From NCBI GenBank assembly GCA_017999365.1, contig JAGNLW010000001.1:130239-194238 (forward strand): 64,000 nucleotides of DNA. The letters are read 5' to 3'. Below the pieces are notes generated by a model. It worked only from the letters and a program-made list of their open reading frames with translations. It was not told the origin of the DNA and searched no databases. Shown here one piece after another: positions 30,411 through 50,811 of the stretch (position 1 is the stretch's first letter; the number at the start of each line of letters is the position of its first letter). The stretch is from Candidatus Aminicenantes bacterium. Its GTDB lineage: Bacteria; Acidobacteriota; Aminicenantia; Aminicenantales; Saccharicenantaceae. The position numbers and the translations under genes were made by a program.

Positions 30411-32342
30411 ATGGCCGAGCTCGACCACGTCATCGTCGGCACGGCCGGGCACATCGACCACGGCAAGAGCGCCCTCGTCCGGGCCCTGACCGGCACCGAC
30501 CCCGACACGCTGCCCGAGGAAAAGGCCCGCGGCATGACCATCGAGCTGGGCTTCGTCTTCCTCGACGACCCGGGCTACCCGAAGCAGATCGTCTTCATCG
30601 ACGTCCCCGGCCACGAGCGCTTCGTCAAGACCATGGCCGCCGGAGCCAGCCACGTCGACGCCGCCCTCCTGGTCGTCGCCGCCGACGAGGGCCTGGCCGT
30701 CCAGACCCGCGAGCATTTCGACATCCTGACCCTCCTCGGCATCGAGCACGGGCTCATCGCCCTGACCAAGAGCGACCTCGTCGACGGGGACCGCGTTGCC
30801 GAGCTCACGGCGTCCGTCCGCGCCTTCGTCCGCGGCTCGTTCCTGGAGAGCGCGCCCATCCTCGCCGTCTCCGCCCTCACCGGCGCCGGCCTCCCGGAGC
30901 TCAAAGCCGCGCTCCAGGCCATCGGCCGCCGCGTCCGCCCCCGGCCCGACAGCGGCGTCTTCCGCATGCCCGTCGACCGCGTCTTCACCATGCACGGCTT
31001 CGGCACGGTCGTCGCCGGCACCGTCCTCTCGGGCACGGTCCGGGCCGGCGACCGCGTCGAGATCTTTCCCGAAGGCCTGAAAAGCCGCGTTCGCGGCGTC
31101 CAAGTCCACGGCTCCAAGGCCGACGTCTCGGGGGTCGGGCGCCGCACGGCCCTCAACCTCCAGGACCTGGCCAAGGAGGATCTCCGCCGCGGCCAGGTCG
31201 CCGCCGCCGAAGGCTCGCTCGTCCCGACGGCGCGCCTCGACGCCCGCCTCGACGTCCTGGCCGACGCCCCCCGCGAGGTCAAGCACCGCGACCGGGTCCG
31301 GCTCCACATCGGGACCGACGAGGTCATGGCCCGGCTCGCCGTCATCGGCGGGCCGTCCGTCGCCCCCGGCGCCTCCTCCCCCGTCCAGCTCGTCCTCGAA
31401 CGGCCGGCCGTGGCCCTGCCCGGCGACCGCTTCGTCATCCGTTCCTTCTCGCCCGTCCTGACCGTCGGCGGAGGCCTCGTCCTCGACGCCGCGCCCGAGA
31501 AACACAAGCGCTTCAGCGGCCGGGTCCTCGAGGGGCTGGGCAAGCTCGGCGGGCCGGCCCGCGAGGCCGTCGACCAGATGTTCGCCCAGGCCGGCGGCAT
31601 CCCCCGGACCGCCTCCGACATCGCCCTCAAGCTCGGCCGGGCCGAAGCCGACGTCGCCGAGGCCGTCGCCGCGCTCGCCGCCGAGGGCGCGCTCGTCGCC
31701 GTCGGCGAGGGCCAGCCCGAGCGCTACCTCCACCGGTCCGTCCGCGACGAGCTGGCCGCCGGGCTCGTCGACGGCCTCAAGGCCTATTTCGCCGCGAATC
31801 CCTACAAGCCGGCCATGCCCTACTCCGATCTCCGCGCCGCTTTTCTCGGCAAAAGCGACGCCGCCGGCCTCAAGCACGTCCTCGACTCCCTCCTCGCCTC
31901 GGGCGCGCTCTTCCGCAAGGACGCCGGCGTCGGCCTCACCGGCCGCGAGGTCGCGGCCGACCCCGTCGAGGCCGAGCGCCGCGCCCGCGTCGCCGGGGCC
32001 TATGCCTCGGCCCGGTTCTCCGCCCCGCTCGAGGACGACGTCCGCCTCTCCCTCAAGCTCAATCCCTCGGCGTTCGAGCCCGTCCTCAACGCCCTGCTCC
32101 GCGACGGCACGCTCGTCCGGCTGGCGCCCAAGGTCGTCTATCACCGCGACACGGTCGAGGCCGCCCGCTTGGCCGTGGCCGGCCTCATCGAGCGGCGCGG
32201 CTCGGTCTCCATCGCCGAGCTCCGCGACCGCCTGGCGCTCTCCCGCAAGTACGCCCAGGCCATCCTGGAATATTTCGACAAGACCGGCTTCACCAAGCGC
32301 GTCGGCGACCGTCACGTCGCGGGCGCGCGCCCCGCCCGCTGA
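30411..32342 (+). CDS. selB: Selenocysteine-specific translation elongation factor
   Basis: GTPase motifs GHIDHGKS, DVPGHERF and TKSD. EF-Tu-like domains II/III are followed by a long C-terminal winged-helix extension (mRNA/SECIS binding). 643 aa. Confidence 0.9.
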   Translation: MAELDHVIVGTAGHIDHGKSALVRALTGTDPDTLPEEKARGMTIELGFVFLDDPGYPKQIVFIDVPGHERFVKTMAAGASHVDAALLVVAADEGLAVQTREHFDILTLLGIEHGLIALTKSDLVDGDRVAELTASVRAFVRGSFLESAPILAVSALTGAGLPELKAALQAIGRRVRPRPDSGVFRMPVDRVFTMHGFGTVVAGTVLSGTVRAGDRVEIFPEGLKSRVRGVQVHGSKADVSGVGRRTALNLQDLAKEDLRRGQVAAAEGSLVPTARLDARLDVLADAPREVKHRDRVRLHIGTDEVMARLAVIGGPSVAPGASSPVQLVLERPAVALPGDRFVIRSFSPVLTVGGGLVLDAAPEKHKRFSGRVLEGLGKLGGPAREAVDQMFAQAGGIPRTASDIALKLGRAEADVAEAVAALAAEGALVAVGEGQPERYLHRSVRDELAAGLVDGLKAYFAANPYKPAMPYSDLRAAFLGKSDAAGLKHVLDSLLASGALFRKDAGVGLTGREVAADPVEAERRARVAGAYASARFSAPLEDDVRLSLKLNPSAFEPVLNALLRDGTLVRLAPKVVYHRDTVEAARLAVAGLIERRGSVSIAELRDRLALSRKYAQAILEYFDKTGFTKRVGDRHVAGARPAR

Positions 32343-32411: not shown

Positions 32412-33557
32412 ATGGGCCCAGCCATGACCGCCCGCCGCGCCCTGTTCCTGTTCCATCTCCGGGTCGGCGCCCGTCTGGCCCTGCGCGTCCTGGCCCCCGT
32501 GCTGGCGGCGGCGCTTTTCCTTTATTACGTTCTCCGGCCGGAGTTCTCGCTCGAGCTGGCCCGCATCCTTTTCATCGAGGGCGGCTTCGTCGAATCCGGC
32601 CTGGCCGGCACGCTGCTCCTGCTCGGTCTGGCCCGCGTGGTCGCACCCCGGATCGCGGCCGGAAGCGCCGGCTGGACGCGCTCGCTCCCGGTCGCCCCGG
32701 CCGCCCAGCGGTTCTCCGCGCTCCTCTCGCTGCTCGTCGCCGAGATCCCCGTCCTCACGGTGCTCGGGGCGTTCGTCTGGGTCATCACGGACCCGGGACC
32801 GATGCCCGGGGCCGCGCTCGCCGCGCGCCTCGCGGAACATGCCCTCCGCTTCCTCCCCCATGTCCTGGGCCTGATCGCGGGCGCCGCCGCGGCCGGCCGC
32901 GTCGCCAGGCGGGACGCGCCCTCCGGGGCCTTCTTCCAAACGCTCTCCCTCCGGGCCGTCGGATGGCGGTTCGCCCTCGCCGGCCTCGCGGCCTGCGCCG
33001 TCCTCGGCGGCGCCCGGCTCCTGTTGGCCAATAACGACCTCGCCCCGCGCGCGGCCTTCGTTCTCTCGCTCTTCGGCATCGTCCTCGGCCTGACCGCGTT
33101 CGTCGGACCGGCCGCCGACATCCTGGCCGCCCGCCGGCCCGCTTGGCCCTGGCTCAGGTCCCTGCCGAGGTCGGCCGCGGCCCGCGTGCGGGACGATGCG
33201 CTCCTCCTGGCCCTGCTCGCCCTCCCGCTCGCGGCCCTCGGCATGATCCTGCTCCGGAGCCCGGCCCGGCGGGCCGCCTACCTCCCGGGACCATTGGCCT
33301 GGCTCGCGGTACGGGGCGCGGAAGCCCTTCGCGAGGCCGGCGACCGGCCGTTCGGGGCTCTCGGGCACATCGCCGTCGAAGGGGCCTTCCTCTCCCTCGT
33401 CCTGGCCCTTTTGCCTTGGACCTCGTTCCTGCTCGCGGCGGCGTCTCCCGTCGCCTTTATCCTCGCCCGCGACGCGGAGCGCCGTCTCAAGCCGACCCGC
33501 TGGGCCGAGCGGCGCCACGCGGCCGCCGGCGACCCCCTCTCCTGGAGCGCTTCATGA
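32412..33557 (+). CDS. Polytopic membrane protein (ABC-2-type permease-like), coupled to the downstream ABC ATPase
   Basis: About 380 aa and highly hydrophobic with multiple TM segments. Its stop overlaps the ATPase start (ATGA). The start may be ATG 32412 or 32424. Confidence 0.55.
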   Translation: MGPAMTARRALFLFHLRVGARLALRVLAPVLAAALFLYYVLRPEFSLELARILFIEGGFVESGLAGTLLLLGLARVVAPRIAAGSAGWTRSLPVAPAAQRFSALLSLLVAEIPVLTVLGAFVWVITDPGPMPGAALAARLAEHALRFLPHVLGLIAGAAAAGRVARRDAPSGAFFQTLSLRAVGWRFALAGLAACAVLGGARLLLANNDLAPRAAFVLSLFGIVLGLTAFVGPAADILAARRPAWPWLRSLPRSAAARVRDDALLLALLALPLAALGMILLRSPARRAAYLPGPLAWLAVRGAEALREAGDRPFGALGHIAVEGAFLSLVLALLPWTSFLLAAASPVAFILARDAERRLKPTRWAERRHAAAGDPLSWSAS

Positions 33558-34285
33558 TGGTCTTCGAGAAGGTCTCCTTCGGCTACGAGCCCGGCCGGCC
33601 GGTCGTCCGGGACGCGACATTCGCCCTGGGCCCCGGGTTGACGCTCCTCGTCGGCCCGAACGGCTGCGGCAAGAGCACCTTGCACAAGCTCGCCGCCGGC
33701 GTCGAGCGCCCCGACGGCGGACGCGTCCTCGTCGACGGCCTGGATCTCTGGGAACGGGAAGCCGAGGCCTGCCGCGGCCTGGCCTATCTGCCGGAATTCC
33801 CGGACATCACGCCCTACGCCTCCCTCCGGGACGTCCTCCGTCTGGTCTGCCGCCTGCGCGGCGAGCCGGGAGCCGCCGGCGAGCGGGCCCTCGAGCTCTT
33901 CGGCCTCGGCGACGAATCCCGGCGCTCGGTCCGCGAGCTGTCCTCGGGACAGCGCAAGCGGGCGCTCTTCGCGGCCGCGTTCGTCGGCCGCCCCGGCCAT
34001 ATCCTGCTCGACGAGCCCCTCGACGCCCTCGACCGCCAGATCGCCGATGAGGTCGTGCGCTGGATCGGCGAGCGGGCGGCGGCCGGGGCTTCGGTCGTCG
34101 TCGTCTCCCACGCCATCGAACCCCTGGCAGGGCTCACCACCCGGGCCGTGACGGCCCGGGCCGGCTCGATCGAGGTCCGCGAGGATATCCCCGCGTCCCA
34201 AGAGGAGCGGCTTCGGCTTCTCGACGCGCTCGCCCGCGGCCAGGACCCGCGCTTTCCCGGGGGAGGTTCCCCAGATGCCGCCTGA
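33554..34285 (+). CDS. ABC transporter ATP-binding protein
   Basis: Walker A GPNGCGKST, signature LSSGQRKR, Walker B ILLDEPLDALD, and an H-loop. Start ATG 33554 inside artefactual ORF 33143..34285. Confidence 0.8.
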   Translation: MMVFEKVSFGYEPGRPVVRDATFALGPGLTLLVGPNGCGKSTLHKLAAGVERPDGGRVLVDGLDLWEREAEACRGLAYLPEFPDITPYASLRDVLRLVCRLRGEPGAAGERALELFGLGDESRRSVRELSSGQRKRALFAAAFVGRPGHILLDEPLDALDRQIADEVVRWIGERAAAGASVVVVSHAIEPLAGLTTRAVTARAGSIEVREDIPASQEERLRLLDALARGQDPRFPGGGSPDAA

Positions 34286-36150: not shown

Positions 36151-36311
36151 CGTCCCCTTCGTTGACCCGGCCGCCGGATTCTCTTATAATCCGTCCGGGT
36201 GCACGGGGCAATGAGGCCCCGCGCAGGTTATCGCCTCACGGGTGGTCGGGCCGCCATCCTTATCGTCCCGGAACGCCTCCCCGGCGTTCGGGGCGCCGAT
36301 AGGGAGTCGCC

Positions 36312-37991
36312 ATGGCTCAGGGTATGACCACCAACGGTTGGATTTTCTTCGCGCTCGGCTGGGGCACGATCATCGCCCTGGCCCTGTACTGCTTCCGCCG
36401 CGTCTTGTTCGGCAAAAAACCCGAGATCGTCGTCGAGGCCGGCGGCCGCGAGCAATGGGGCTCGCGGGTCGGGCTCATCCTGGCCGTGGCCGGCAACGCC
36501 ATCGGCCTGGGCAACTTCCTGCGTTTCCCGGTCAAGGCGGCCGCCAACGGCGGCGGCGCCTTCATGATCCCCTACTTCGTGGCCTTCCTGCTGCTCGGCA
36601 TCCCCATGATGTGGGTCGAGTGGACGATCGGCCGTATGGGCGGGGCCCACGGCCACGGCACGACGCCGGGCATGCTCAACCTGCTCTGGAAGAAAGCGCC
36701 TTCGAAGTACCTCGGCGCGCTGGGCATCGTCATCCCCTTCGTCATCGTCATCTACTACAATTTCATCGAGTCGTGGTGCCTGGGCTTCTCCTGGTTCTCG
36801 ATCACCGGCAAGTATTTCGGCCACGCCAACCGCGAGGCCATGGGACAGTTCCTACGCGGCTTCCAGGGAGTCGAGTCGAACGAATTCTTCAGCTCCATGG
36901 CCCCCATCCTCATCTTCTGGGGCATCACCATCGCCATGAACTTCTTCTTTCTCTACAAGGGCATCTCCCGAGGCATCGAGGTCCTGGCCAAGTACGGCAT
37001 GCCCTTGCTCTTCGTCTTCGGCATCGTTCTCGTCGTCCGCGTCCTGACCCTGGGCACGCCCGATCCGTCGACGCCGGAGCTCAACATCGGGGCCGGACTG
37101 GGCTATATCTGGAACCCCGACTTCAGCCGCCTGGGGTCGGCCACGGTCTGGCTGGTCGCGGCCGGGCAGATCTTCTTCACCCTGAGCCTGGGCCAGGGCA
37201 TCATCAACACCTACGCGTCCTACGTCCGCGAGAAGCAGGACATCACCCTCAACGGCATCACGACCGCCTCGACCAACGAGTTCGCGGAGGTCGTGCTCGG
37301 CGGCACCATCGCCATCCCGGCCGCCATCGTCTTCTTCGGCCTGGCCGAGACCCAGGCCATCGCCCAGGGCGGCGCCTTCAACCTGGGCTTCCAGGCCCTG
37401 CCGGTCATCTTCCAGAAGATCCCGCTCGGCCAGATCTTCGGCGGCATGTTCTTCTTCCTTCTCTTCATCGCCGGCATCACCTCGTCCGTGGCCATGACCC
37501 AGCCGGCCATCGCCTTCCTCCAGGACGAGTTCAAATGGAAGCGCGAGAAGGCCGTCGTGGTCGTGTTCTCCGTGCTGGTCACGATGACGGCCATGGTCAT
37601 CGCCTTCTTCCGGTTCGGCTTCCTCGACGAGCTCGACTTCTGGGCCGGCACCTTCGGCCTGGTCGTCTTCGCGGCCATCGAGATCGTCCTGTTCTCCTGG
37701 GTCTTCGGTCTCAAGAAGGGCTGGGCCGAGATGCACAAGGGAGCCGACCTCAAAGTGCCGCGCGTCTTCCGCTTCATCCTGACCTACATCACGCCCATCT
37801 ACCTGCTGGTCATGCTGGCCATCTGGACCTACCAGGACGCGGTCAAAGCCTTCCTGATGAAGGACAAGCCAGAGGCCGACAAACCCTACCTGTGGGGCGC
37901 CCGGGTCATGATCGCCGCCCTGCTCCTGGCCATGTGCTTGCTCATCCGCAAGGCCTGGAACCGGAAAAAAGCCGAGCCGCAGGCGTCATGA
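36312..37991 (+). CDS. Neurotransmitter:sodium symporter (NSS/SNF) family transporter
   Basis: GNAIGLGNFLRFP is the NSS signature (GNxVGLGNxWRFP). 559 aa, 12 TM. Confidence 0.9.
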   Translation: MAQGMTTNGWIFFALGWGTIIALALYCFRRVLFGKKPEIVVEAGGREQWGSRVGLILAVAGNAIGLGNFLRFPVKAAANGGGAFMIPYFVAFLLLGIPMMWVEWTIGRMGGAHGHGTTPGMLNLLWKKAPSKYLGALGIVIPFVIVIYYNFIESWCLGFSWFSITGKYFGHANREAMGQFLRGFQGVESNEFFSSMAPILIFWGITIAMNFFFLYKGISRGIEVLAKYGMPLLFVFGIVLVVRVLTLGTPDPSTPELNIGAGLGYIWNPDFSRLGSATVWLVAAGQIFFTLSLGQGIINTYASYVREKQDITLNGITTASTNEFAEVVLGGTIAIPAAIVFFGLAETQAIAQGGAFNLGFQALPVIFQKIPLGQIFGGMFFFLLFIAGITSSVAMTQPAIAFLQDEFKWKREKAVVVVFSVLVTMTAMVIAFFRFGFLDELDFWAGTFGLVVFAAIEIVLFSWVFGLKKGWAEMHKGADLKVPRVFRFILTYITPIYLLVMLAIWTYQDAVKAFLMKDKPEADKPYLWGARVMIAALLLAMCLLIRKAWNRKKAEPQAS

Positions 37992-39396: not shown

Positions 39397-41049
39397 TTAA
39401 CGAGGCGTGACGGGTCGACGAGTGGCGTTGGTCCCGCAATGGACCTCGCCGCCGTACCGATGGTAGGGGGAGAAGTCGTCGATGACCGCGATCCTGCAGC
39501 CGAGCGGCTCCAACCGGTCCTTGACGGCCCGCAGCAGCACGTCCGTTCCCCCGACGAGCGGCCCGTGGGGATCGGGGACGATCAGGGTCTTGCCGACCTG
39601 GAGAGAATTGACCATGTTGGCCGTCAAGGCGCCGTAACGGCCCTCGAAGCGGCCGGGCCAGGTCTCGAACAGGACGGGGATCTCGACGATATCCGCGTCG
39701 TCGATGCCGAGCTCGGCCTGGAGCGTCCGGCGCACCGCATCGATCTTCTTCTGGACGAAGGCCTGGTCGGCCCGGACCTTCGGGTCCTTCAGGACCGTCG
39801 CGACCGGCGCATCGAGGTATTCCCCTTTCTCGCTGTCCGGGCGCCGGGTCCCCCGGTTCAGGATGCCGCCCGGAGCCGCCCGCTCCGCGTCGCGGAGAAG
39901 CTCCAGGGCCAGGCGGGGCGAAGGCAAGAGCATCCGAAAGGGGCGCCCGACGTCGGACGGGACCCACGACACGGTTTCGTCGACGTGGCCGATGACGAGC
40001 CACGACGTATCGAGCCACAGCACGGGAGCCTGCGCCCCCTGGGCCTCGAGGAAAGCGATGACCTCGGGATGCATGGACCGGGCCCCTTGGGTTCCCGCGT
40101 AGACGCGGCCGAAAGGAAAAGCGCGATCCCCGACCGTGACCGGAGGGCTGACCTCGAGATTGCCGTACCAATCGATCCATTCCGCCGACCGGCCCCGATC
40201 GCTCCCCGGATGGATGACCGCGGAATCGGGGCCGAGAAAGGACTCGGCGAATAACCCGTCCAGCTCATGTCCCCGATTCCCGTGGAGAGCGACAGGGATC
40301 GCCCTCCGTCCATCGCCCGCCCAACCGATCTCCGTGGCGTCCTGGATCCAGATGTCGTGCTCGGGCAGGTCCGGCCGTTCGAAGGCCAGGAGCCGCGCCC
40401 CGGCCGCTTCGACGAGCGGCTTCAGCTCTTCGACGAAGCGTTCGGTCAGCTTCGTCCGCACGACATGAACGGCGTCCGCCGGATCGAGGCAACTGGACAT
40501 CAGGAACGGCGCCAGGGCGACCGCCACAACCCGATGCGCGATCGGCCGTCCTTCCCGGGTCTCGAAACGGAAGCCGACCTCGAACTCGCGGGGACGATCC
40601 CGTCCGGCGAAATCCCCCGCTTCGATGGCGATCTCGACGCTCCCTTCCCGGCATTCTTCGGCCTTGAGCTGAAGGGCGTCCGCGACGGGCCGAAAGCAAC
40701 CGCCCTTCGGATCGAGATGCAGGACCCTGAGGGAGCGCACCCAGGAGGACGGCACTTCGGGCTTAAGGACCGATCCTTCAGGGAGAGACCGACCGGAGAC
40801 GATCCGTGTTCTCACGAGTTCGTTCTCGATAGCCGCATCGAGGGAATCCGCCCGGCAGTCGGGACGTCCGTCCCCGTCGTCGTCGTCGACGTTCGGGATG
40901 ATGGCCCGGGTCTCCCTGAGCCTCTCATTCTGGCCAGACCCGCCGGTCCTGGCCCCGGAAACGATCGTCCCCCTCAGGATGAACGCGGCCAAGAGCACCG
41001 TTCCGAGACATAAGGCCGTCAACCGGGGCAAGTCATGCCTGTCGCTCAT
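39397..41049 (-). CDS. Protein-arginine deiminase (PAD, eukaryote-type catalytic domain) homolog, secreted or membrane-anchored
   Basis: C-terminal ...YGGEVHCGTNATRRP matches the PAD catalytic-Cys region (human PAD4 ...GEVHCGTNVRRKP...). The N-terminus has a signal/TM anchor. 550 aa. Confidence 0.65.
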   Translation of the reverse strand: MSDRHDLPRLTALCLGTVLLAAFILRGTIVSGARTGGSGQNERLRETRAIIPNVDDDDGDGRPDCRADSLDAAIENELVRTRIVSGRSLPEGSVLKPEVPSSWVRSLRVLHLDPKGGCFRPVADALQLKAEECREGSVEIAIEAGDFAGRDRPREFEVGFRFETREGRPIAHRVVAVALAPFLMSSCLDPADAVHVVRTKLTERFVEELKPLVEAAGARLLAFERPDLPEHDIWIQDATEIGWAGDGRRAIPVALHGNRGHELDGLFAESFLGPDSAVIHPGSDRGRSAEWIDWYGNLEVSPPVTVGDRAFPFGRVYAGTQGARSMHPEVIAFLEAQGAQAPVLWLDTSWLVIGHVDETVSWVPSDVGRPFRMLLPSPRLALELLRDAERAAPGGILNRGTRRPDSEKGEYLDAPVATVLKDPKVRADQAFVQKKIDAVRRTLQAELGIDDADIVEIPVLFETWPGRFEGRYGALTANMVNSLQVGKTLIVPDPHGPLVGGTDVLLRAVKDRLEPLGCRIAVIDDFSPYHRYGGEVHCGTNATRRPVTPR

Positions 41050-41170
41050 GGAGGCACGTTAACATAGCCCACCTGTGGAATCAACGCGGCCGGCGGCCGC
41101 ACGGGAAGTTCCCCATGACCCGGATCGCCTTGACACATGTTCCCCGAGAGACTACCATCACTCCGCCCTC

Positions 41171-41265
41171 GGGAGGGTGAAGGATCCGGTGATCCTTCCG
41201 GACTTCAAATCCGGTATGGGGCTATAAACGTCCCGGATGGGTTCGACTCCCATACCTTCCCGCCA
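41171..41265 (+). tRNA. selC: tRNA-Sec (anticodon UCA)
   Basis: 95 nt. 8-bp acceptor stem GGGAGGGU/ACCUUCCC (one G-U), 6-bp D-stem AGGAUC/GAUCCU with 4-nt loop, anticodon stem CCGGA/UCCGG with loop CUUCAAA (UCA), long variable arm GGGGC-UAUAAAC-GUCCC, 5-bp T-stem AUGGG/CCCAU with loop UUCGACU, discriminator G and an encoded CCA. This is the bacterial 8/5 tRNA-Sec architecture. Confidence 0.85.
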
Positions 41266-41338
41266 CTCCCCTTCCCGCCGAGCCCTTGACAACCCCGGCC
41301 ATCGGATTATCCTTATCTGCGGGGATCGGTAAGAAACC

Positions 41339-42997
41339 ATGGCGCGGAGCCGAACTGCGTTCCTCCTGCTCGCATTGACGGCGGTCCTCGGATCGTGCGG
41401 AGCCGAGGCCCCCGCCGAGATCACCGTATCCGTCATCCCGGATGCGGCCGTGGTCTATCCTTTCTACTCGAGACAGTTTCGGGCCTACGTCCGTAATTCG
41501 ACGGACAACAACGTCACCTGGAGCGTGTCCGGAACGGGCCGCTGCGGCACGATCAACGAGACCGGCCGTTACACCGCTCCTCCGAGCGTCCCCAATCCGG
41601 CCCGGGTGATGGTCACGGCGACTTCCGTCGAGGACCCGACCAAGTCGGCCTCCGCCGCGGTCGAACTTGTCTACGGCCCCGACGATCCCAACCAATGGAC
41701 ATGGGTCAACGGCAGCGACCAGGTCGACGAGCGCGGCGACTATGGGACGAAAGGTGTTTCCGCCGCTGCCAACGCGCCGGGAGCCCGACAGTCCGCCCTC
41801 TCTTGGAGCGGCCCGTCCGGCACGCTTTGGCTGTTCGGAGGCTTCGGCTATTCCCACGACGTCGGCATCCTCAACGACCTGTGGAATTACGATCCCGCGA
41901 TCGACCAATGGACCTGGATCTCGGGCGGCGATCATCCCGACCAGGTCGGCGTGTATGGGACGAAAGGGACCCCGAACGCCGCGAACGTCCCCGGGAGCCG
42001 GGAGTGGTCCGCCTCCTGGATCGACGCCGTCGGCCGGCTCTGGCTCTTCGGCGGCGAAGCCTACGATGCGGACGGGAACCTCGGCACGATCAACGATCTG
42101 TGGCGGTTCGATCCGAGCGCCGGCGCGTGGACCTGGATCTCCGGCAGCGACCGATGCTGGGAGTCCGGGATCTACGGCGCCAAAGGCGTGGCGGACCCCG
42201 CGAACATGCCGGGAGGTCGACGGGGGCATGTCTCCTGGATCGACCCGGAGGGCGCGCTCTGGCTCTTCGGCGGTAAGGGCTTCGATACTACCCCCGAACA
42301 GCTCTTCGGCTCTTTCAACGATCTTTGGAAATTCGACCCGAGCACCCTTCTTTGGACTTGGATGTCGGGGACGGACGACATCGAACGGCCTGGGACCTAC
42401 GGCGTCAAGAGGGTCCCCGATCCGGCGAACGTCCCGGGAGGACGGGAGGGGGCCTCGAGCTGGACCGATGCGGAGGGGAACCTTTGGCTCTTCGGCGGGT
42501 CCGGCTGCGATGCGACCGGAGGCGTCGAGGCGCTCAACGATCTCTGGAAGTTCGACCGCGTCCTGGGACAGTGGACATGGATGTCGGGGAGCGACCTCGG
42601 CGATTCGTACGGCACCTATGGCGCCCTCGGCGCGCCGGCGCCAACGAACGTCCCCGGGGCCCGCACCGGGGCCGTGGCCTGGACCGACCGCCTGGGAAGG
42701 CTCTGGCTCTTCGGCGGTTACGGATTCGCCGCGGCCGGCTACGGCCGCGAGCTCAACGATCTCTGGCGGTTCGATCCTTCGACCCTCGAATGGACCTGGA
42801 TCTCGGGCAGCGACCAGCCCGAACCGCGCGGCATCTACACCGAGCGCCATATCGTCGAGTACATCGACGCTCCCGGGGGCCGCTATCATGCCGTCTCCTG
42901 GCTCGGCCCCCGCGGAGACCTCTGGCTCTTCGGCGGCCGGGGCTACGACGCCGACCGCGGCGGCCATCTCAACGACCTCTGGCGATTTCAATTCTGA
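41339..42997 (+). CDS. Kelch-repeat (galactose-oxidase-type) beta-propeller lipoprotein with N-terminal Ig-like domain
   Basis: Lipoprotein signal ...VLGSCGA. Eight repeats of the pattern YGTKG-x5-ANVPG-R-x5-W-x-D-x2-G-x-LWLFGG-x-G-x-D...LNDLW-x-FDP. Confidence 0.85.
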   Translation: MARSRTAFLLLALTAVLGSCGAEAPAEITVSVIPDAAVVYPFYSRQFRAYVRNSTDNNVTWSVSGTGRCGTINETGRYTAPPSVPNPARVMVTATSVEDPTKSASAAVELVYGPDDPNQWTWVNGSDQVDERGDYGTKGVSAAANAPGARQSALSWSGPSGTLWLFGGFGYSHDVGILNDLWNYDPAIDQWTWISGGDHPDQVGVYGTKGTPNAANVPGSREWSASWIDAVGRLWLFGGEAYDADGNLGTINDLWRFDPSAGAWTWISGSDRCWESGIYGAKGVADPANMPGGRRGHVSWIDPEGALWLFGGKGFDTTPEQLFGSFNDLWKFDPSTLLWTWMSGTDDIERPGTYGVKRVPDPANVPGGREGASSWTDAEGNLWLFGGSGCDATGGVEALNDLWKFDRVLGQWTWMSGSDLGDSYGTYGALGAPAPTNVPGARTGAVAWTDRLGRLWLFGGYGFAAAGYGRELNDLWRFDPSTLEWTWISGSDQPEPRGIYTERHIVEYIDAPGGRYHAVSWLGPRGDLWLFGGRGYDADRGGHLNDLWRFQF

Positions 42998-43257: not shown

Positions 43258-43848
43258 ATGACGCCCGCAACGAGGTCCGTCCGCGCCGCGCTCGCCGCGG
43301 CCTTCGCCCTGGCCGTCCTTCTCGCGCCCGCCGCGTCGGCCGAGGTCTTCAAGGCCCGCATGCTGACCGGCATGGCCCCCGTCGAACCGCCCATGGTCAA
43401 CGTCCAGATGGAGGTCACCGGCTGGACGACGCTCGAGGAGATCCGCCAGTTCCAGGACATCCTCGGCTCGGCCGGCATCGACGCCTTCCTGGCCGCCTTC
43501 AACCAGGCCGACAAGGGCACCGTCCGGTTCATGACCACGCGCGGCTGGAACCTGCCCATTCACGCGGCCGTGGTCGTGCCTGACGACAAAGGCGGCAAGG
43601 TTGTGCGGCTGTTCTTCAACCGCCAAAGCTGGAACCCGGGCTCCTACAAGCCGGTCGGGCGGCACTATTTCATGGCCATCGAGCTCAAGCTCAACGAGAA
43701 GGGCAAGGGCGAGGGCCGGTTCTACGAGGATGCCCAGCTCAAGCTGAACTCCCTCGCGGCGACCGTCGAGATCGAGACCTACGAGTCGGCCCCCAAGCTC
43801 TTCCCGCAGGTCCAGGAAGTGGTCAAGAAGGCCGACGCGAAGAAGTAG
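43258..43848 (+). CDS. Secreted hypothetical protein (196 aa)
   Basis: Signal peptide (...APAASAEV). Lys-rich native-like composition. It is the only long ORF in a lower-GC stretch. Confidence 0.6.
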   Translation: MTPATRSVRAALAAAFALAVLLAPAASAEVFKARMLTGMAPVEPPMVNVQMEVTGWTTLEEIRQFQDILGSAGIDAFLAAFNQADKGTVRFMTTRGWNLPIHAAVVVPDDKGGKVVRLFFNRQSWNPGSYKPVGRHYFMAIELKLNEKGKGEGRFYEDAQLKLNSLAATVEIETYESAPKLFPQVQEVVKKADAKK

Positions 43849-45427
43849 CGTAGAGATCGCCGCCCTTCCCGTCGTAGATGACGAAGGCGGGCAGGTCGCG
43901 GACGACGATCCTCCGGACGGCTTCCATCCCCAGGTCGGCGAAGTCGATCGTCTCGCTCGAGACGATGTGCTCCTTGGCGATGAGCGCGGCCGCGCCGCCG
44001 ATCGTGCCCAGGAACACCCCTCCCCCGGCCTTCAGCGCCTCGACGGCGGGAGCGGTCCGGTTGCCCTTGCCGATGGAGACGAGCGAGGCCCCGGCCTTCA
44101 GGAAGTCGGCCATATAGCCGTCCATACGCTGGGCCGTGGTCGGGCCGAAGCTGCCCGAGGGCATCCCCTTGGGCGTCTTGGCCGGGCCGGCGTAATAGAC
44201 GGGATGGTGCTTGAGGTAATCCGGCAGGTCGCCCGTCTCGCGGAGGATCTTCGCCAGCCGGGCGTGGGCGATGTCGCGGGCCACGACGAGCGGCCCCGAG
44301 AGGCGGACCATCGTGCCTACGGCCAGGCCCTTGAGCTTGGCCAGGATCACGGGCATGGGTTGGCCGAGATCGACGGTCACGGCCGCCGCCGGCCCGGCCG
44401 TCCGGGCACCCTCTAGGAACCGGCCCGGCCGCCGCTCAACCTCTTCCAGGAAGACGCCGTCGGCCGTGATCTTGCCGCGCAGGCCGCGGTCGGCGTTGCA
44501 GGAGACGCCCAGTCCGATCGGGCACGATCCGGCGTGGCGGGGCAGGCGGACGAAGCGCACTTCGTGGGCGAGATAGCGCCCGCCGAATTGCGCACCGAGC
44601 TCCGTCTCCCGAGCCAGGCGCATGACGCGCTCCTCCCAATCGAGGTCGCGGAAGGCGTCGCCGCGCCGGCCGCCTATCTTCGGCAGGCCGTCGAGGAAGC
44701 CGGCCGAGGCCAGCTTGACGGCTTTCAGGGTCGCCTCGGGCGACAGGCCGCCGACGACGACGGCGACGCGGTAGGGCGGGCAGGCGGCCACGCCGAGGGC
44801 ACGGATCTTCTCGGCCAAAAAGGCTTCGAGGGCCCCGTCCTCGAGCCGGGCCTTGGACTCCTGGAACAGGGCGATCTTGTTGGACGAGCCGCCGCCTTTG
44901 GCCAGGAAGAAGAACCGGTATTCGTCGCCGGGGACGGCCTGGAGCTCGATCTGGGCCGGCAGGTTCGTCCCGGTGTTGACCTCGTCCATGACCGTGAGCG
45001 GAGCCATGACGGAATAGCGCAGGTTGCGCGTCCGGTAGACGCGGGACGCGGCCGCCGCCAGGACGTCCTCGTCCCGGCCGTCGGTGACGACGCGGAAGCC
45101 CCGGCCGCCGAAAACCTGGATGGAGCCGGTGTCCTGGCAGAGCGGCAGGACGCCCTCGGCGGCGATGACGGCGTTACGCAGGACCGCCTCGGCCACGAAG
45201 CGGTCGTTGCCGGAGGCGTCAGGGGCGTCGAGGACGCGGCGCATGGCCGCCAGGAAGTCCGGCCGTAGGAAGAAGGCCAGGTCGGCGAAGGCCTCGCCGG
45301 CCAGGGCTTCGAGGGCGCCGTCGGCCACGCGCAGGGCCGGCCGGCCGCCGCAGGCGGCCTTGCGGACGCCCCGCGCCGCGAGCTTCCGGTACTTGACGCG
45401 ATCGCGTCCCAGGGCGAAGGCGTTCAT
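43823..45427 (-). CDS. Class I (Fe-S) fumarate hydratase-family hydro-lyase, fused alpha+beta. Probably acts as mesaconase/fumarase given its location.
   Basis: CQDTGS, one of the Fe-S cluster cysteine motifs of class I fumarases/tartrate dehydratases. 534 aa single-chain form. It sits at the end of the methylaspartate cluster. Confidence 0.85.
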   Translation of the reverse strand: MNAFALGRDRVKYRKLAARGVRKAACGGRPALRVADGALEALAGEAFADLAFFLRPDFLAAMRRVLDAPDASGNDRFVAEAVLRNAVIAAEGVLPLCQDTGSIQVFGGRGFRVVTDGRDEDVLAAAASRVYRTRNLRYSVMAPLTVMDEVNTGTNLPAQIELQAVPGDEYRFFFLAKGGGSSNKIALFQESKARLEDGALEAFLAEKIRALGVAACPPYRVAVVVGGLSPEATLKAVKLASAGFLDGLPKIGGRRGDAFRDLDWEERVMRLARETELGAQFGGRYLAHEVRFVRLPRHAGSCPIGLGVSCNADRGLRGKITADGVFLEEVERRPGRFLEGARTAGPAAAVTVDLGQPMPVILAKLKGLAVGTMVRLSGPLVVARDIAHARLAKILRETGDLPDYLKHHPVYYAGPAKTPKGMPSGSFGPTTAQRMDGYMADFLKAGASLVSIGKGNRTAPAVEALKAGGGVFLGTIGGAAALIAKEHIVSSETIDFADLGMEAVRRIVVRDLPAFVIYDGKGGDLYATSSRRPS

Positions 45428-46371
45428 TCGTAGATCCCCTCGACGTCGATGAGGTCCTCGAAGGCGTCCTCCCCTTTCTTGCCGACGAGGCCGATGACGT
45501 AATATTCCTTGCTCATGTGGTCGTAGCGGTATTCCTTGATGAGGCGGAAGTTCTCGATCTTGCCGCTCGAGGAGACGTGGGTCCGCGTCCCCGTGCAGGG
45601 CATGGTGCTCTCGCCGATGCCCAGGGTGTTTTCGCCGCAGACGGACAGCGGCACGTCCTTGGCGATGATGGCCAGGACCTTCTTCTCGAGCTCGTGGAGG
45701 TCGACGTCGGGCCGCTCCTTGAAGTTCAGGACGAAGCCCTGGCGGACGTCGGAGTGCAGGGGCGGGAAGGGGATGCGGTAGTCCTTCTCCAGGACCATGC
45801 AGGTGATGTCCTCGGCCGAGTGGGCCATCAGCCGGTACCTGATGGTCTTGTCGACGACCTCCTTGATGGCCCGGGGGAAGGGCCCGAAGACCGTCGGCCG
45901 GGCGACGATGATCTCCTCGCCGATGCCGATGAGGACCTGGGCGTTGTGGCCCAAGGACTCGTAGACGAGGTCGAAGTGCTCGACGACGACCCGGCGGTGG
46001 TGGGAGACGGCCTTGAGGATGGCCTCCGCGAGCTCGTACTTCTGGTGGAAGGCCAGCTCGTAGCGGGCGTCGATGTGGAAGGTGTGGCCCGAGAAGGGGT
46101 CGGCGGGGTCGAAATCGTAGAGCGGCGTCGGCCGGACGTTGATGCCCTCGTCGTCGTTGGTCAGCTCGAGCCCGGGGAAGAGCCCCTTGATGAGGGTCGA
46201 CTTGCCCGAGCCCTCAGCGCCGAGGATACCGATGAGCAGGTCGGTCGGCGTCAGGTACTTCTGGGCCAGCTCGGCCGCGACCATGTACAGCCGGTTGCTG
46301 CCGCGGGGGGCGTAGTAGGTGGCGTAGAGGAGCGTCTCGCGGTGGACCGTGCCTTGGCCGAGCTTCATCAT
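45424..46371 (-). CDS. P-loop NTPase of unknown function
   Basis: Walker A GILGAEGSGKST. 315 aa. Overlapping start/stop with its neighbours (ATGA) on both sides implies an operon with the fumarase-like gene and the DUF1446/DUF4387 pair. Confidence 0.55.
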   Translation of the reverse strand: MMKLGQGTVHRETLLYATYYAPRGSNRLYMVAAELAQKYLTPTDLLIGILGAEGSGKSTLIKGLFPGLELTNDDEGINVRPTPLYDFDPADPFSGHTFHIDARYELAFHQKYELAEAILKAVSHHRRVVVEHFDLVYESLGHNAQVLIGIGEEIIVARPTVFGPFPRAIKEVVDKTIRYRLMAHSAEDITCMVLEKDYRIPFPPLHSDVRQGFVLNFKERPDVDLHELEKKVLAIIAKDVPLSVCGENTLGIGESTMPCTGTRTHVSSSGKIENFRLIKEYRYDHMSKEYYVIGLVGKKGEDAFEDLIDVEGIYE

Positions 46372-46391
46372 GGAGCGGCCTCCTCTCTCCC

Positions 46392-46703
46392 CTAGTAGGT
46401 CAGGCTCAGGAGCGGGGCGTGCTGCTGCGCGCCGTAGATGTCGGTCTCGCCCGCGTCGCCCGACGGGATGGGCCGGCGCATGGTGATCTTGAGGGCGTTG
46501 CTGGGCTCGAAGTAGACGATCTTGAGGATGTCGGCGACGGGCCGCTTGTAGAGCGCGGCGACCTTCCTCTTGGTGACGATGTTCCGGCGGCGGAAGAGCT
46601 CGAAGTGCTCGCGGTCCTTGAACAGGATGTCGAGCGTCAGCTCGTAGGGCCCGGAGTTCTTGGACCGGATGACCTTGGCGGCGCCGAGGATGCTGCGCTT
46701 CAT
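46392..46703 (-). CDS. Small protein (103 aa), DUF4387-like
   Basis: Start ATG 46703 with an AGGAG RBS. It is the in-frame tail of artefactual ORF 46392..47795. It sits directly downstream of the DUF1446-like gene, a pairing I recall as conserved. Confidence 0.5.
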   Translation of the reverse strand: MKRSILGAAKVIRSKNSGPYELTLDILFKDREHFELFRRRNIVTKRKVAALYKRPVADILKIVYFEPSNALKITMRRPIPSGDAGETDIYGAQQHAPLLSLTY

Positions 46704-48097
46704 GATATCTCCTTTCCGCCCCGGAAGACGACCGTCCGGGCTGGGAAATCGTCCGGACGGGCGACCGGCATCAGGTGATAGACCGAGAACTCGAAGACCT
46801 CGCCCATTTTGGCATCGGAGGGCGAGAAAGGCAAGGCCAGGTTGCCGGCCGTCGAGATGCGGCCGGGATAGCCGTAGTGGAGCAGGGTCGAGCGGGTCAG
46901 GCCGCAGACCGAGTCGGCCGCGGCCTGGGTCGGACCGACGGCCTCGATGACGAGGCCCAGCTCGTGCGAGCGGACCGTCTTCTCGGGCTCCAGGGCGCCC
47001 ATGACCCCGTCCTTGCCGTAGACGTGGAAGAAGACCCGGCCCTCGACCTTCTCGGCCGCCAGGATGTCCTTGACCTGGGACTCGACGCCGGCCAGGATGC
47101 CGTCGATCTCGCGGATCATGATGGGGTCGCGGGTGCCGGCCACGGCGATGGTCCGGTAGCCGACCCGGCGGACGCCCTCGAGCTTGACGAAATACCGCTC
47201 GGTCTCGACGTGGCGGCTGCCGCGGACCTCGACCCGGCCGCCGGGAAGCTCGGTGAACGAGCAGGCGGTCAGGTCGAGCTCGCCGCCGGGGCCCGGCAGG
47301 TGATAGGGATCGGTCTTCTCGTAGAGGGTGTGGGCGGCCGTCGAGACCTTGGTGAAGCGGCGCTTGGGATTGAGGGACTCGAGGACGAAGGAGTCCTCGG
47401 TGAGGGTGGCGAAGGCGCAGTCGGCCCCGGAGCCCGGCGTCGCGGCGATGGCCGCGCACTCCAGGATCTTGCCCATGTGGATGGCCAGGCCCGGGCCGAA
47501 GCCGCGGGCGATGGGCAGGGCGGCGAAGACGGCCGGGTCGTAGCAGCGGCCGGCCAGGACGACCTGGCAGCCGTCCGCCAGGGCCTTCTGGATGGGCTCG
47601 ACGCCCATCTGGCAGACGACGTTGACCGACTCGTCGAGGACGGCCTCGGTGAGCGGCGGGACATAGGTCAGCGGCACGATCTCGCCCTTGCGCAGGTGCC
47701 TGCGGACGACGGCCTTGGGGACGTCGGAGTAGATGATGCCCAGCGTGAAGCTCAGCTTCTCCTCGGCCGCGATCTCGCGGACGATCTCCTCGCACCAGTC
47801 GACGTGGGGCCGGGCCCCGCTGCCGCCGGCCGTGCCGACGACGACGGGGATGCCGCGCTCGACGCCGGCCTTCAGCATGAAGCGCAAGTCGCGCTTGACG
47901 GCCGAGCGGTCGGTGAAGGACTTGCCCGCCCCGAGGTAGTAGGGGCCGGGGTCGGTCGAGCCGGCGTCGGCCCCGATGAGGTCTGGCTCCTTGGCCAGGC
48001 CGGCCATGAAGGAGGCCTCCGGGAAGCCGTAGCCGAGGATGGCCGTCGTCGACAGGACGCGGAACTCTTTCTTGGCTTTTTTCGGCCGGGCGGCCAT
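46700..48097 (-). CDS. DUF1446 (AtuA-like) family protein, function unknown
   Basis: 465 aa. AGGAGG RBS. Its stop overlaps the start of the small downstream gene. The family assignment is from recollection of the conserved DUF1446+DUF4387 gene pair and is uncertain. Confidence 0.55.
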   Translation of the reverse strand: MAARPKKAKKEFRVLSTTAILGYGFPEASFMAGLAKEPDLIGADAGSTDPGPYYLGAGKSFTDRSAVKRDLRFMLKAGVERGIPVVVGTAGGSGARPHVDWCEEIVREIAAEEKLSFTLGIIYSDVPKAVVRRHLRKGEIVPLTYVPPLTEAVLDESVNVVCQMGVEPIQKALADGCQVVLAGRCYDPAVFAALPIARGFGPGLAIHMGKILECAAIAATPGSGADCAFATLTEDSFVLESLNPKRRFTKVSTAAHTLYEKTDPYHLPGPGGELDLTACSFTELPGGRVEVRGSRHVETERYFVKLEGVRRVGYRTIAVAGTRDPIMIREIDGILAGVESQVKDILAAEKVEGRVFFHVYGKDGVMGALEPEKTVRSHELGLVIEAVGPTQAAADSVCGLTRSTLLHYGYPGRISTAGNLALPFSPSDAKMGEVFEFSVYHLMPVARPDDFPARTVVFRGGKEIS

Positions 48098-48098
48098 G

Positions 48099-49352
48099 TC
48101 AGGCCTCCTTCCCCGTCCGCGAGCGGAGCACGGCCAGGACCCGCTCCATCTCGTTGCGGACGATCATGTAGCCCTCGTCGAAGCCCATGCCCGGCTTGGC
48201 CAGCAGGCGCTCGGCCCGGGCGGCCACGGCGGCGTGGACGCAGGCCTTGGCCGAGACCTCGGTCTCGTTGCAGGTGCCGCCCTGGTAGGCCTCCATGCCG
48301 TGGGCCCGGCAGTGGAGGACGGCCTCGATGGTGTTCTGGATGCCGCCGAGGTCGGGCGTCTTGATCTGGACCATGTCGCAGGACTGGGCGGCCGTGAAGT
48401 CGACGACGTCCTCGTAGGTGTTGCACCACTCGTCGGCGACGATCTTGACCCGGGAGCCCTTGGCCCGCAGCTCGCGGCGGATGGCGGCCAGGAGCTCGAT
48501 CTGTCGGGGCTTCTCGCCGGCGTCGACGGGCCCCTCGATGTAGAGCGGGAACTCGCCGGCCACGGGCTCGAGCGAGGCCAGGTAGTCGGCCACGCGGGCC
48601 GGCTTGAGGGCGCAGATGACGCCGATCGTGCCGTAGACGTCGATGTGGAGGGTCGGGACGTAGGCGGGGTCGGTCCGGACCTTGCGGATGCGGTCGACGA
48701 GCCAGCCGACGTACTCGCGGAGGAGCTCGCCCTCGTGGCCGAGCTTGGTCTTGACGTTGTTGATGAGGGCGTGGGGCAGGACGTCGACCCGCTTCATGAT
48801 CATCTTGTCGGCGTTGATGTAGCGGTCGTCGCCGCTCTGCCCGAAGATGGGCACGCGCTCGGCGACGACGGGCAGGCCGTACTCCTCGCAGACGACCTCG
48901 GCCATGATCCGGCCCGTGGCCAGGGCCCGGGCGTGGAGCAGGGCCTGGGACAGGCCGTAGCGGATGGCCGTGTGCAGGCGCCGCCCCCCGAACTCGAGGG
49001 CCTCGAACCGGGCGGCCAGGTCGCGGAAGCGGCCGACCTCGGCGCCCTCGAGAAGGGGCCGTATCTCGCGCTCGAGGAGGGGCAGGTAATCGGCGGCGAG
49101 GAACAGGGGGTCGCGGCCGCCGGCCCCGGAGTACTGGACGGCGGCGCAGTCACCCAGGGCCCAGCTGCCGTTCTCGAGCTGGAGCAGGACGGACAGGGCC
49201 TCGCCGGCGACCCGGACGGCCTTGAAGCCGGGGGTCTCGGGCTTGCCTCCGTAGACGGCGCCGTCGTGCGGCGCGCCGGATTTGATGGCCTGCTGGTCGT
49301 CGAAATAGAAGGCCGACGACCCGGGCACGAACAGGGCTTTGACGATCTTCAT
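48099..49352 (-). CDS. Methylaspartate ammonia-lyase (beta-methylaspartase)
   Basis: Start MKIVKALFVPGSSAFYFDDQQAIK (MAL N-terminal signature). 417 aa enolase-superfamily protein. It is the tail of artefactual ORF 48099..50237. Confidence 0.9.
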   Translation of the reverse strand: MKIVKALFVPGSSAFYFDDQQAIKSGAPHDGAVYGGKPETPGFKAVRVAGEALSVLLQLENGSWALGDCAAVQYSGAGGRDPLFLAADYLPLLEREIRPLLEGAEVGRFRDLAARFEALEFGGRRLHTAIRYGLSQALLHARALATGRIMAEVVCEEYGLPVVAERVPIFGQSGDDRYINADKMIMKRVDVLPHALINNVKTKLGHEGELLREYVGWLVDRIRKVRTDPAYVPTLHIDVYGTIGVICALKPARVADYLASLEPVAGEFPLYIEGPVDAGEKPRQIELLAAIRRELRAKGSRVKIVADEWCNTYEDVVDFTAAQSCDMVQIKTPDLGGIQNTIEAVLHCRAHGMEAYQGGTCNETEVSAKACVHAAVAARAERLLAKPGMGFDEGYMIVRNEMERVLAVLRSRTGKEA

Positions 49353-50800
49353 TTGGGCCTCCCGATGAGCTTGCCTTTGCTGATGGCATAGATGTCGTCG
49401 GTCACCATCTGGAAGGTGACCGGGCGCCCCTCGGTCCGGGACCGCTCCTGCAGGCGCTCCTTGTGGAAGTTCATGATGTCGTCGCCGAGGGGCAGGGCGC
49501 CCTTGGCGAAGAGGCGGATGTAGCCCTCGTTGTCGCGGATGGGCAGGACCTTGCCCTTGTTGTAGACCGACGGGGCGAAGGGCACGTCGAGGATGCCGGA
49601 GGCGAAGGCCCGGACGACGCCCTGGACGAGGTCGTCGCCGGCGGCCGACAGGACGGCCCGCATGAGGGCGTCGACCTCGCGGCGGATGAGGTCCTTCTCG
49701 CGGTCGACGACGGCGTTGTCGGTGCAGATCCTCTGGTCCTGCATCATGCTCAGGACCTGGCGGGTGGCCTTGAGCCCGGCCGCGTTGGCCTCCTTGGTCG
49801 GGATGCCCATGGCCTCGTGGGGGGACTTGACGATGGTCTTCTCGACCTTGCCGGCGGCGGCGACGAAGGCGCCCGTGCTGATGACCGAGAAGGCCTTGGC
49901 CTCGTCCTCGGGGAAGCCGCCCATCCACTGGTGGAAGACCAGGGTCAGGTCGTAGTCGGAGAAGCCGGCGGCGCGGAAGTACTCGTCGGCGAGCTCCCGG
50001 AGGGAGGCCAGGGCGGCCAGGTCCTGCAGGACGTTGCCGCCCTGCCCGTAGCCGAGGGTCAAAGATTTGACGCCCTGCTCGAGGGCCAGCAGGCCCTCGA
50101 GGATGGCCACGGTGTGGGAGATGAAGGGCGGCACGAGGGTCCCCGTCAGCGGGCCGAAGGGCTCGCGGTTGACGCTGATGCCGTTCTCCTCGTAGTAGCC
50201 GGTCAGCCGGTCGACGTACTGCCAGTGGCGCAGGCACTCCCCGACCTCGACCTTCTTGGCGTAGGGGATGTTGTAGGAGATGCCGCCGCCCTCGTAGGAC
50301 GTGAAGCCGCCGGCCAGGGAGATCTCGGCCAGCAGCCGGGCGTCCGGGGTGCCGTGGCGGACCTGGGTCGGCCGGGAGACGGCCTCGGTGACCTTGCGGC
50401 AGCCGTCGCGGCCGTGATTGACGGCCGGGAAGCCGTTGAGGAGCGAGGTGCCGGCGGCCCGCGACTTCTCGATGCCGCGGGCGGCCTCTTCGTAGCGGTT
50501 CTGCCGCGTGTAGGCGTCGATCGTCGTCGGCAGGAGGTCGGCCGTGCCCTCGGTCTCGAGGAAGCGGAGCAGGCGGATGTGGTCGTCGATGAGGGCCACG
50601 CCGGCCCGCGGTTGGATGAGGGTGCGGCCCTCGGCCTTGGCCTTGGCCATGGCTTTGGCGAAGTTCTTTTCCGCGGGCAGGGCGCGCTGGTAGCGCAGGC
50701 CGTCCTCGATGTCGGCGACGTCCCGGCCGGTCGGCCAGGAGTCGAGCACGGCCTGGCGCTGGGCCAGAAAGTCCTTCCAGGGCATGCGGTGGTGTGTCAT
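49349..50800 (-). CDS. glmE: Glutamate mutase epsilon (E, catalytic) subunit / methylaspartate mutase E chain
   Basis: 483 aa, the typical GlmE/MutE size. Conserved along its whole length. Start overlaps the MAL start region (ATGA). Confidence 0.9.
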   Translation of the reverse strand: MTHHRMPWKDFLAQRQAVLDSWPTGRDVADIEDGLRYQRALPAEKNFAKAMAKAKAEGRTLIQPRAGVALIDDHIRLLRFLETEGTADLLPTTIDAYTRQNRYEEAARGIEKSRAAGTSLLNGFPAVNHGRDGCRKVTEAVSRPTQVRHGTPDARLLAEISLAGGFTSYEGGGISYNIPYAKKVEVGECLRHWQYVDRLTGYYEENGISVNREPFGPLTGTLVPPFISHTVAILEGLLALEQGVKSLTLGYGQGGNVLQDLAALASLRELADEYFRAAGFSDYDLTLVFHQWMGGFPEDEAKAFSVISTGAFVAAAGKVEKTIVKSPHEAMGIPTKEANAAGLKATRQVLSMMQDQRICTDNAVVDREKDLIRREVDALMRAVLSAAGDDLVQGVVRAFASGILDVPFAPSVYNKGKVLPIRDNEGYIRLFAKGALPLGDDIMNFHKERLQERSRTEGRPVTFQMVTDDIYAISKGKLIGRPK

Positions 50801-50811
50801 GGGTGTCCTCG

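Follow-up and report, generated by a model that had tools for sequence, protein, structure and literature searches.

The selenocysteine tRNA gene of a Candidatus Aminicenantes bacterium is the unoccupied site of an island that restores the 5' half of the tRNA in sister strains

The DNA analysed here, called the window throughout, is a 64,000-nucleotide stretch of the genome of Candidatus Aminicenantes bacterium with a G+C content of about 70%. It holds a tRNA-Sec (selC) gene which serves as an attachment gene, and its attachment site is unoccupied in the window. Sister strains carry an island of 21,952 bp at this site, and this island restores the 5' half of tRNA-Sec, i.e. it shows a rare reversed polarity. 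For the gene itself, a functional bacterial selenocysteine tRNA gene is the best explanation, and we hold this reading with little doubt.

The tRNA-Sec gene and its fold

When the whole 64-kb window was searched with ARAGORN, a single tRNA was returned, a tRNA-SeC on the plus strand with the anticodon tca at position 35, at exactly the coordinates at which the first-pass annotation had placed a 95-nt tRNA-Sec with a UCA anticodon. The Rfam model of tRNA-Sec, RF01852, matched positions 41171-41261 over model positions 1-91 of 91 with 76.5 bits against a gathering score of 47 (E = 5.9e-14). The coordinates of the gene, its arms and the other features discussed below are collected in Table 1, in which nucleotide n of the tRNA corresponds to position 41170+n of the window.

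Table 1 Features of the tRNA-Sec locus, its neighbourhood and the sel genes in the window.
Feature	Position	Strand	Description and evidence
selA, L-seryl-tRNA(Sec) selenium transferase	27762-29180	+	472 aa; Pfam SelA, E = 3e-137; TIGR00474, 547 bits (cut-off 268)
selD, selenide, water dikinase	29164-30405	+	Pfam AIRS, AIRS_C; TIGR00476, 350 bits (cut-off 125)
selB, selenocysteine-specific elongation factor	30411-32342	+	643 aa; TIGR00475, 331 bits (cut-off 242)
PAD (protein-arginine deiminase) family gene	39397-41049	-	upstream, divergent; PF03068, E = 1.2e-80
Sigma-70-like promoter	41130-41158	+	TTGACA-17 nt-TACCAT; 12 nt between the box and the mature 5' end
92-aa antisense ORF	41158-41436	-	ATG start; shares sequence with the tRNA and the beginning of the Kelch gene; from the ORF listing
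Empty attachment site (attB identity block)	41170-41209	+	40 bp, position -1 to tRNA nt 39; direct repeat flanking the sister-strain island
tRNA-Sec (selC) gene	41171-41265	+	95 nt; ARAGORN, Rfam RF01852, pair counts on alignments
Acceptor stem	41171-41178 with 41254-41261		nt 1-8 with 84-91; 8 bp, one G.U; strands GGGAGGGU / ACCUUCCC
D arm	41181-41196		nt 11-16 with 21-26; 6 bp, AGGAUC/GAUCCU; 4-nt loop CGGU
Anticodon arm	41198-41214		nt 28-32 with 40-44; 5 bp, CCGGA/UCCGG; 7-nt loop CUUCAAA; anticodon TCA at 41205-41207
Variable arm	41217-41235		nt 47-52 with 60-65; 6-bp stem; 7-nt loop
T arm	41237-41253		nt 67-71 with 79-83; 5 bp, AUGGG/CCCAU; loop UUCGACU
Discriminator G	41262		nt 92; read from the sequence
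CCA, DNA-encoded	41263-41265		nt 93-95; read from the sequence
Promoter-like site of the Kelch gene	41286-41313		promoter scan
Kelch-repeat lipoprotein gene	41339-42997	+	downstream; several Kelch families in Pfam

A 13-bp helix of acceptor and T stem (8+5) and a 6-bp D stem with a 4-nt loop separate tRNA-Sec from ordinary tRNAs (7+5). Both are present in the window gene, together with the UCA anticodon in a 7-nt loop, a linker of 2 nt between acceptor stem and D stem (read from the sequence), a long variable arm, the G73 discriminator and a 3' CCA; the Rfam score lies above the gathering score, and selA, selB and selD co-occur. The gene is a routine member of the tRNA-Sec family and carries every defining feature that can be tested at the sequence level. 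The long variable arm and the encoded CCA were already part of the first-pass annotation and were found as described. Thermodynamic folding yielded the same cloverleaf with a D stem longer by one to two pairs. Three details of the tRNA itself count against a functional selC: the U27.U45 mismatch at the sixth position of the anticodon stem, a single-sequence folding z-score of -2.2, which is modest and usual for one tRNA, and the positions of the EF-Tu antideterminant. In E. coli, this antideterminant reportedly consists of C7-G66, G49-U65 and C50-G64; the window tRNA has U-A, A-U and U-A at these positions.

The fold was assessed by covariation in a set of six distinct tRNA-Sec sequences, comprising the window gene, selC of E. 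coli O157 and four genes from related metagenome-assembled genomes (MAGs). In the 8/5 structure, 98.9% of the cells form a standard pair and 12 of the 30 pairs show compensatory changes. None of 500 shuffled controls reached the observed values of pairing and compensation, and shifting the register by 1-3 columns left only 39-59% paired. The pairs of the acceptor and T stems, folded by hand in the first-pass annotation as 8 and 5 bp, are kept in all six sequences (100% paired), seven of them with compensatory change; the same holds for its 6-bp D stem, which is 100% paired with compensatory change in 4 of 6 pairs and encloses the 4-nt loop CGGU. Two-sided changes also occurred inside the lineage itself, namely at 14-23 (A-U to U.G), 15-22 (U-A to C-G) and 67-83 (A-U to G-C). 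These compensatory changes, including those within the lineage, indicate that the fold is under selection and that it is the bacterial tRNA-Sec fold. In related MAGs, the tRNA is identical at 92-95 of 95 nt (other species, 92-93 of 95; independent assemblies of the same species, all 95). A blastn search with the 95-mer matched 5,417 of 5,426 complete E. coli genomes, nearly all at a single place each, and among the E. coli matches listed all three places are annotated tRNA-Sec genes.

Promoter, neighbouring genes and the selenocysteine pathway

The sigma-70-like promoter upstream of the tRNA agrees with the consensus at 10 of 12 positions, and the consensus scan would be expected to return 0.2 such sites by chance. 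The motif TTGAC(A/G/T)-17-TA(C/G)(C/G)AT was found at equal distance in about a dozen related species, with a diverging spacer sequence. This conservation of the box in position, while the spacer diverges, points to a promoter of its own and to a leader of very few nucleotides, and we infer from the sequence that the box acts as the promoter of the tRNA-Sec gene. A scan of the window revealed no intrinsic terminator downstream of the tRNA gene. The PAD-like and Kelch lipoprotein genes between which the first-pass annotation had located the tRNA were both recovered by Pfam; the N-terminus of the Kelch protein (MARSRTAFLLLALTAVLGSC) shows a signal peptide and a lipobox (...AVLGSC).

The three sel genes are located upstream of the tRNA and all exceed the respective NCBIfam equivalog cut-offs. 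With 8.8 kb between the selB stop codon and tRNA-Sec, they lie at the distance of 9 kb given in the first-pass annotation; their order had been given as selABD and is actually selA-selD-selB. In SelB, the Pfam domains GTP_EFTU, Beta-barrel_SelB and SelB-wing_3 score above their cut-offs and SelB-wing_2 just below (21 vs 22.3 bits). The catalytic position of SelD is occupied by Cys and not by Sec (NAGCASKIG). The protein also carries an N-terminal extension of about 60 residues (window positions 29164-29360), which is Cys-rich (GHCICNPKDPCPCDLFKQKNVCLCAGE) and lies outside the SelD profiles; the TIGR00476 match begins at residue 66, and public gene calls differ in the start of selD (392 or 413 aa). 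A gene for a 190-aa DsbD_N-like protein (27193-27765, plus strand) ends 4 nt into selA. The two genes look translationally coupled, and the DsbD_N-like protein might act with the sel operon in the handling of thiols or selenium. In two crude GC3-based scans of the 64-kb window for selenoprotein genes, i.e. for an in-frame TGA with continuing coding signal, no convincing candidate was found; the scans gave only ordinary stop codons, among them those of a tandem-Usp gene at 23251, of selB and of others. A literature search on Aminicenantes and selenocysteine returned nothing relevant.

Several other features of the window were recorded. The interval between selB and the NYN gene (32412-34285) varies between strains, as seen in loci L028 and L029: an unannotated protein has 377 or 431 aa and an ABC ATPase 243 or 180 aa, depending on the assembly. 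An nhaA-I RNA motif (36197-36259, plus strand; Rfam RF03057, 53.2 bits against a gathering score of 37) is located directly upstream of a gene of the sodium:neurotransmitter symporter family (SNF; 36312-37991). Downstream of the Kelch gene, a co-oriented cluster on the minus strand (43823-52443) encodes MutL, the methylaspartate mutase E chain, methylaspartate ammonia-lyase, AtuA, a DUF4387 protein, a 315-aa unannotated protein and a Fumerase-family protein, and is adjoined by a gene for a GntR-family regulator (52652-53665); on our reading, it resembles a methylaspartate (glutamate fermentation) cluster. A plus-strand gene (53801-58474) encodes a 1,557-aa protein with an N-terminal AMP-binding and a C-terminal GNAT acetyltransferase domain and about 800 aa without annotation between them. 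Proteins identical to those of the window were found on metagenome contigs from anaerobic digesters and sewage and in the MAG GCA_012516875.1.

What the sequence data show directly is the gene with its fold, a conservation that includes compensatory changes, the promoter-like box and the co-occurrence of selA, selD and selB; for the steps from transcription and processing over charging and conversion to decoding, we reason by analogy with the established bacterial pathway. Along this route, transcription of selC would probably start at its own sigma-70-type promoter and yield a leader of few nucleotides, to be cut off by RNase P, and the 3' end would be trimmed to the encoded CCA. SerRS would then add serine, with the long variable arm and the G discriminator (G73) as presumed identity elements, and SelA would turn Ser-tRNA(Sec) into Sec-tRNA(Sec) using selenophosphate from SelD. 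Finally, SelB, and not EF-Tu, would be expected to bring Sec-tRNA(Sec) to UGA codons followed by a SECIS hairpin.

Two alternatives to a functional selC gene were weighed first. According to the first, the locus is a tRNA-Sec-like relic, either an unexpressed pseudogene or the attachment-site remnant of a mobile element. Such remnants do occur, since copies truncated to nt 1-39 form the island junctions in sister strains and are found in related species, and one MAG (L026) has, besides its intact gene, an isolated fragment at a distance of 4.3 kb. The window copy, however, is of full length, scores well above the Rfam gathering score, keeps all helices and is preceded by a promoter box that is conserved among species; it is identical in independent assemblies of the same species, retains 92-93 of 95 nt in other species, and has no rival tRNA-Sec in the vicinity of the complete selA-selD-selB set. 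We therefore regard a relic as very improbable. Equally improbable is the second alternative, a non-canonical UGA-reading tRNA, be it an allo-tRNA, a selC*-type tRNA charged with Cys or a suppressor derived from tRNA-Ser. The UCA anticodon and the long variable arm are common to such tRNAs, and allo-tRNAs have reportedly been recovered from metagenomic lineages including Acidobacteria-related ones, which counts in its favour. Allo-tRNAs and selC*-type tRNAs are said to be defined by an 8/4 or 9/3 geometry of acceptor and T stem and/or a non-G discriminator. The window gene, in contrast, has the canonical 8/5 fold and a 6-bp D stem with a 4-nt loop, not an 8/4, 9/3 or 7/5 fold, its discriminator is G and not U, all three loops equal those of E. 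coli selC, both ARAGORN and Rfam assign it to the Sec class, and selA and selB are present. On the grounds of geometry and discriminator, an allo-tRNA or selC*-type identity was rejected; an ordinary class II tRNA identity failed its tests as well.

Least credible of all is the possibility that the region codes for a 92-aa antisense protein and that the tRNA-like fold is incidental, since the ATG-initiated 92-codon ORF on which it relies has a GC3 of 0.72 against roughly 0.82-0.96 in the Pfam-supported genes of the window and an atypical codon-position GC pattern, shares sequence with both the tRNA and the beginning of the Kelch gene, does not appear in any of the public gene calls listed for this region, and competes with a tRNA match of E = 6e-14. 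The ORF is spurious, as the first-pass annotation had already held, and the one drawn opposite tRNA-Sec should be dropped from the annotation. The functional selC gene that we favour matters for annotation only, in that it completes a Sec-decoding set (selA, selB, selC, selD) in an uncultured high-GC bacterium of anaerobic digesters.

An island integrated into tRNA-Sec in sister strains

In sister strains that carry the island, the Kelch gene is preceded not by the PAD gene but by a primase/AAA_25 gene and a gene for a 459-aa tyrosine integrase with the domains HTH_17, Int_N and Phage_integrase. The island is bounded by a direct repeat of 40 bp, both junctions being located on one 2.27-Mb JGI contig, and the same two junctions were found in independent ENA assemblies. 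At the left, PAD-side junction (L006, L028), the native promoter is retained with tRNA nt 1-39 only; this fragment stops at the final base of the anticodon loop, where foreign DNA takes over. At the right, Kelch-side junction (L001), the stop codon of the integrase gene is followed after 8 nt by an intact tRNA-Sec, identical to the window gene at 95 of 95 nt. From the structures of the two junctions it follows that the displaced piece is a 5' fragment with the native promoter and that the element supplies the 5' half. The island thus has the hallmarks of integration at a tRNA attachment site, with a direct repeat within the tRNA gene at its bounds and the integrase at the tRNA-proximal end; its polarity is not the usual one, as the fragment left behind is the 5' part with the native promoter and not a 3' fragment. 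The anticodon stem-loop is the probable core of the crossover.

The island also encodes an SNF2 helicase, and its cargo includes a protein of 1,759 aa that matches Druantia DruE (E = 5e-108). Those island genes that could be seen all have the same orientation as tRNA-Sec (L001, positions 1-2927; L028, 1-7885; L006; L007). A search of the last 430 nt ahead of the island-side tRNA gave no sigma-70-like promoter, and the 3' end of the integrase ORF, within its last codons, contains a terminator-like hairpin. On the left arm, we considered whether the conserved sequence is a coding region reading into the junction and rejected this possibility, the frame having no start codon (by eye). Metagenome contigs were scanned once for exact and once for partly degenerate matches; neither scan revealed a junction of an excised or tandem island (attP). 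Among viral contigs, neither the 39-mer nor relatives of the integrase were found, and the proposal that the element is a phage has no support for this reason.

The sequence of tRNA nt 1-39 has an exact match at 15 loci of species-representative genomes, whose records bear the titles Candidatus Aminicenantes bacterium, Acidobacteria bacterium, uncultured bacterium or 'uncultured Eubacteriales bacterium', and several of which keep the neighbouring genes at 59-84% amino-acid identity. Fragments ending at nt 39, together with conserved island-arm sequence, were found in at least 5 other MAGs. One MAG contains three copies: one fragment retains the promoter, a second fragment lacks a native promoter, and an intact tRNA follows the 3' end of an integrase gene. 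This pattern fits tandem islands.

Two loci show other arrangements. On the minus strand of L026, a 39-nt 5' fragment with island-arm sequence (4989-5027) is located 4.3 kb upstream of an intact tRNA-Sec with a native-type promoter (627-721); between them lie a housekeeping-like peptidase S41 gene and two ORFs without Pfam match, and no integrase gene. This fragment is probably the relic of an old insertion with subsequent rearrangement. The suggestion that it overturns the model of reversed polarity was rejected because both junctions of the window species are located on one contig. On the minus strand of L014 (962-1005), a tRNA-Sec fragment extends to nt 44 instead of nt 39 and abuts the 3' end of a convergent DUF6624 gene; it is a different type of junction or a rearrangement.

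A search for homologues of the integrase gave 1,346 proteins at E <= 1e-20. For those with at least 60% identity, every member inspected showed the arrangement of stop codon, 8 nt and tRNA-Sec from nt 1 onwards; the tRNA-Sec is of full length in L035 (3001-4492) and L040 (2501-4007), and the contigs of L036 and L037 end inside it. For integrases of 46-48% identity (L038, 3001-4463; L041, 2501-3972), the stop codon lies directly before a 5'-truncated tRNA, which is the usual 3' polarity. With Rfam, these truncated tRNAs matched model positions 15-71 with 42 bits (anticodon CUU) and 14-71 with 31.8 bits (anticodon UCG). Rfam searches of whole loci returned no tRNA fragments, and such fragments score only when placed at the start of the searched stretch. 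The order of integrase gene, tRNA-sense core at the anticodon stem-loop and element body is common to both polarity groups. We infer that the groups differ by which arm of attP carries the restoring tRNA copy, and read this difference in evolutionary terms.

Two further observations were made on individual homologues. In L037 (4398-4456), the island contributes CUGGA to the anticodon stem, which faces UCCGG and forms a G.U pair with it; this would fit a chimeric tRNA-Sec whose halves meet in the anticodon loop. Behind the integrase gene of L042 (42% identity), a 3' fragment of a tRNA or tmRNA was recognised by eye; the Rfam scan of the whole locus was negative.

We consider it reasonably probable that these observations belong to a wider pattern, in which an entire clade of tyrosine integrases fused to HTH_17, found in Aminicenantes-like bacteria, targets selC and the islands systematically restore its 5' half (nt 1-39). 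In such carriers, the native promoter would be split from the tRNA and face co-oriented island genes including DruE, tRNA-Sec would depend on sequence and transcription of the island, and the clade would have evolved from 3'-restoring relatives by a move of the restoring copy between the arms of attP. If this is true, all selenoprotein synthesis in carriers would rely on what the island supplies in sequence and transcription. Occupied and empty sites form a natural pair here and, together with an integrase family that has both tRNA-targeting polarities, offer a clean system for asking how an element replaces the promoter-proximal half of a tRNA gene of an essential pathway and how the tRNA is expressed afterwards.

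Comparison with E. coli selC and known islands in tRNA genes

The window gene and selC of E. coli O157 both have 95 nt and align without gaps. They share the 8-bp acceptor stem, the 5-bp T stem, the 6-bp D stem, the long variable arm, the G discriminator and the encoded CCA, and the D loop CGGU, the anticodon loop CUUCAAA and the T loop UUCGACU are identical. The sequences are about 76% identical over the part aligned by blastn, and eleven stem pairs differ by compensatory change. Further differences are the U27.U45 of the window tRNA in place of G.U in E. coli, the pairs at the antideterminant positions, the variable loop of 7 nt in the window tRNA, and the host, which in case of the window is a high-GC uncultured bacterium.

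In enterobacteria, too, tRNA-Sec is the attachment site of islands that bear an integrase gene and are present or absent depending on the strain. In E. coli O157:H7, the tyrosine integrase gene and the island are located 3' of an intact selC with its own promoter, whereas the sister-strain island is located 5' of the intact tRNA and has displaced nt 1-39 together with the native promoter. The cargo also differs, as the sister-strain island includes a Druantia-like DruE helicase, and the site in the window is empty.

The attachment sites of islands with tyrosine integrases in tRNA genes reportedly include a sublocation in the anticodon loop, and some integrative elements reportedly use the 5'-distal portion of a tRNA gene for recombination. 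In a published article (PMC6563490), recombination with the 5'-distal part is described as 'considerably less frequent' than with the 3'-distal part, and archaeal cases are cited. The sister-strain island shares with such elements the reversed polarity and the 5' tRNA part carried by the element. It differs from the known cases in that the reversal spans a whole integrase clade (at least 60% identity), whose relatives at 42-48% identity appear to keep the usual 3' polarity, and in its target, which is tRNA-Sec of Aminicenantes-like bacteria.
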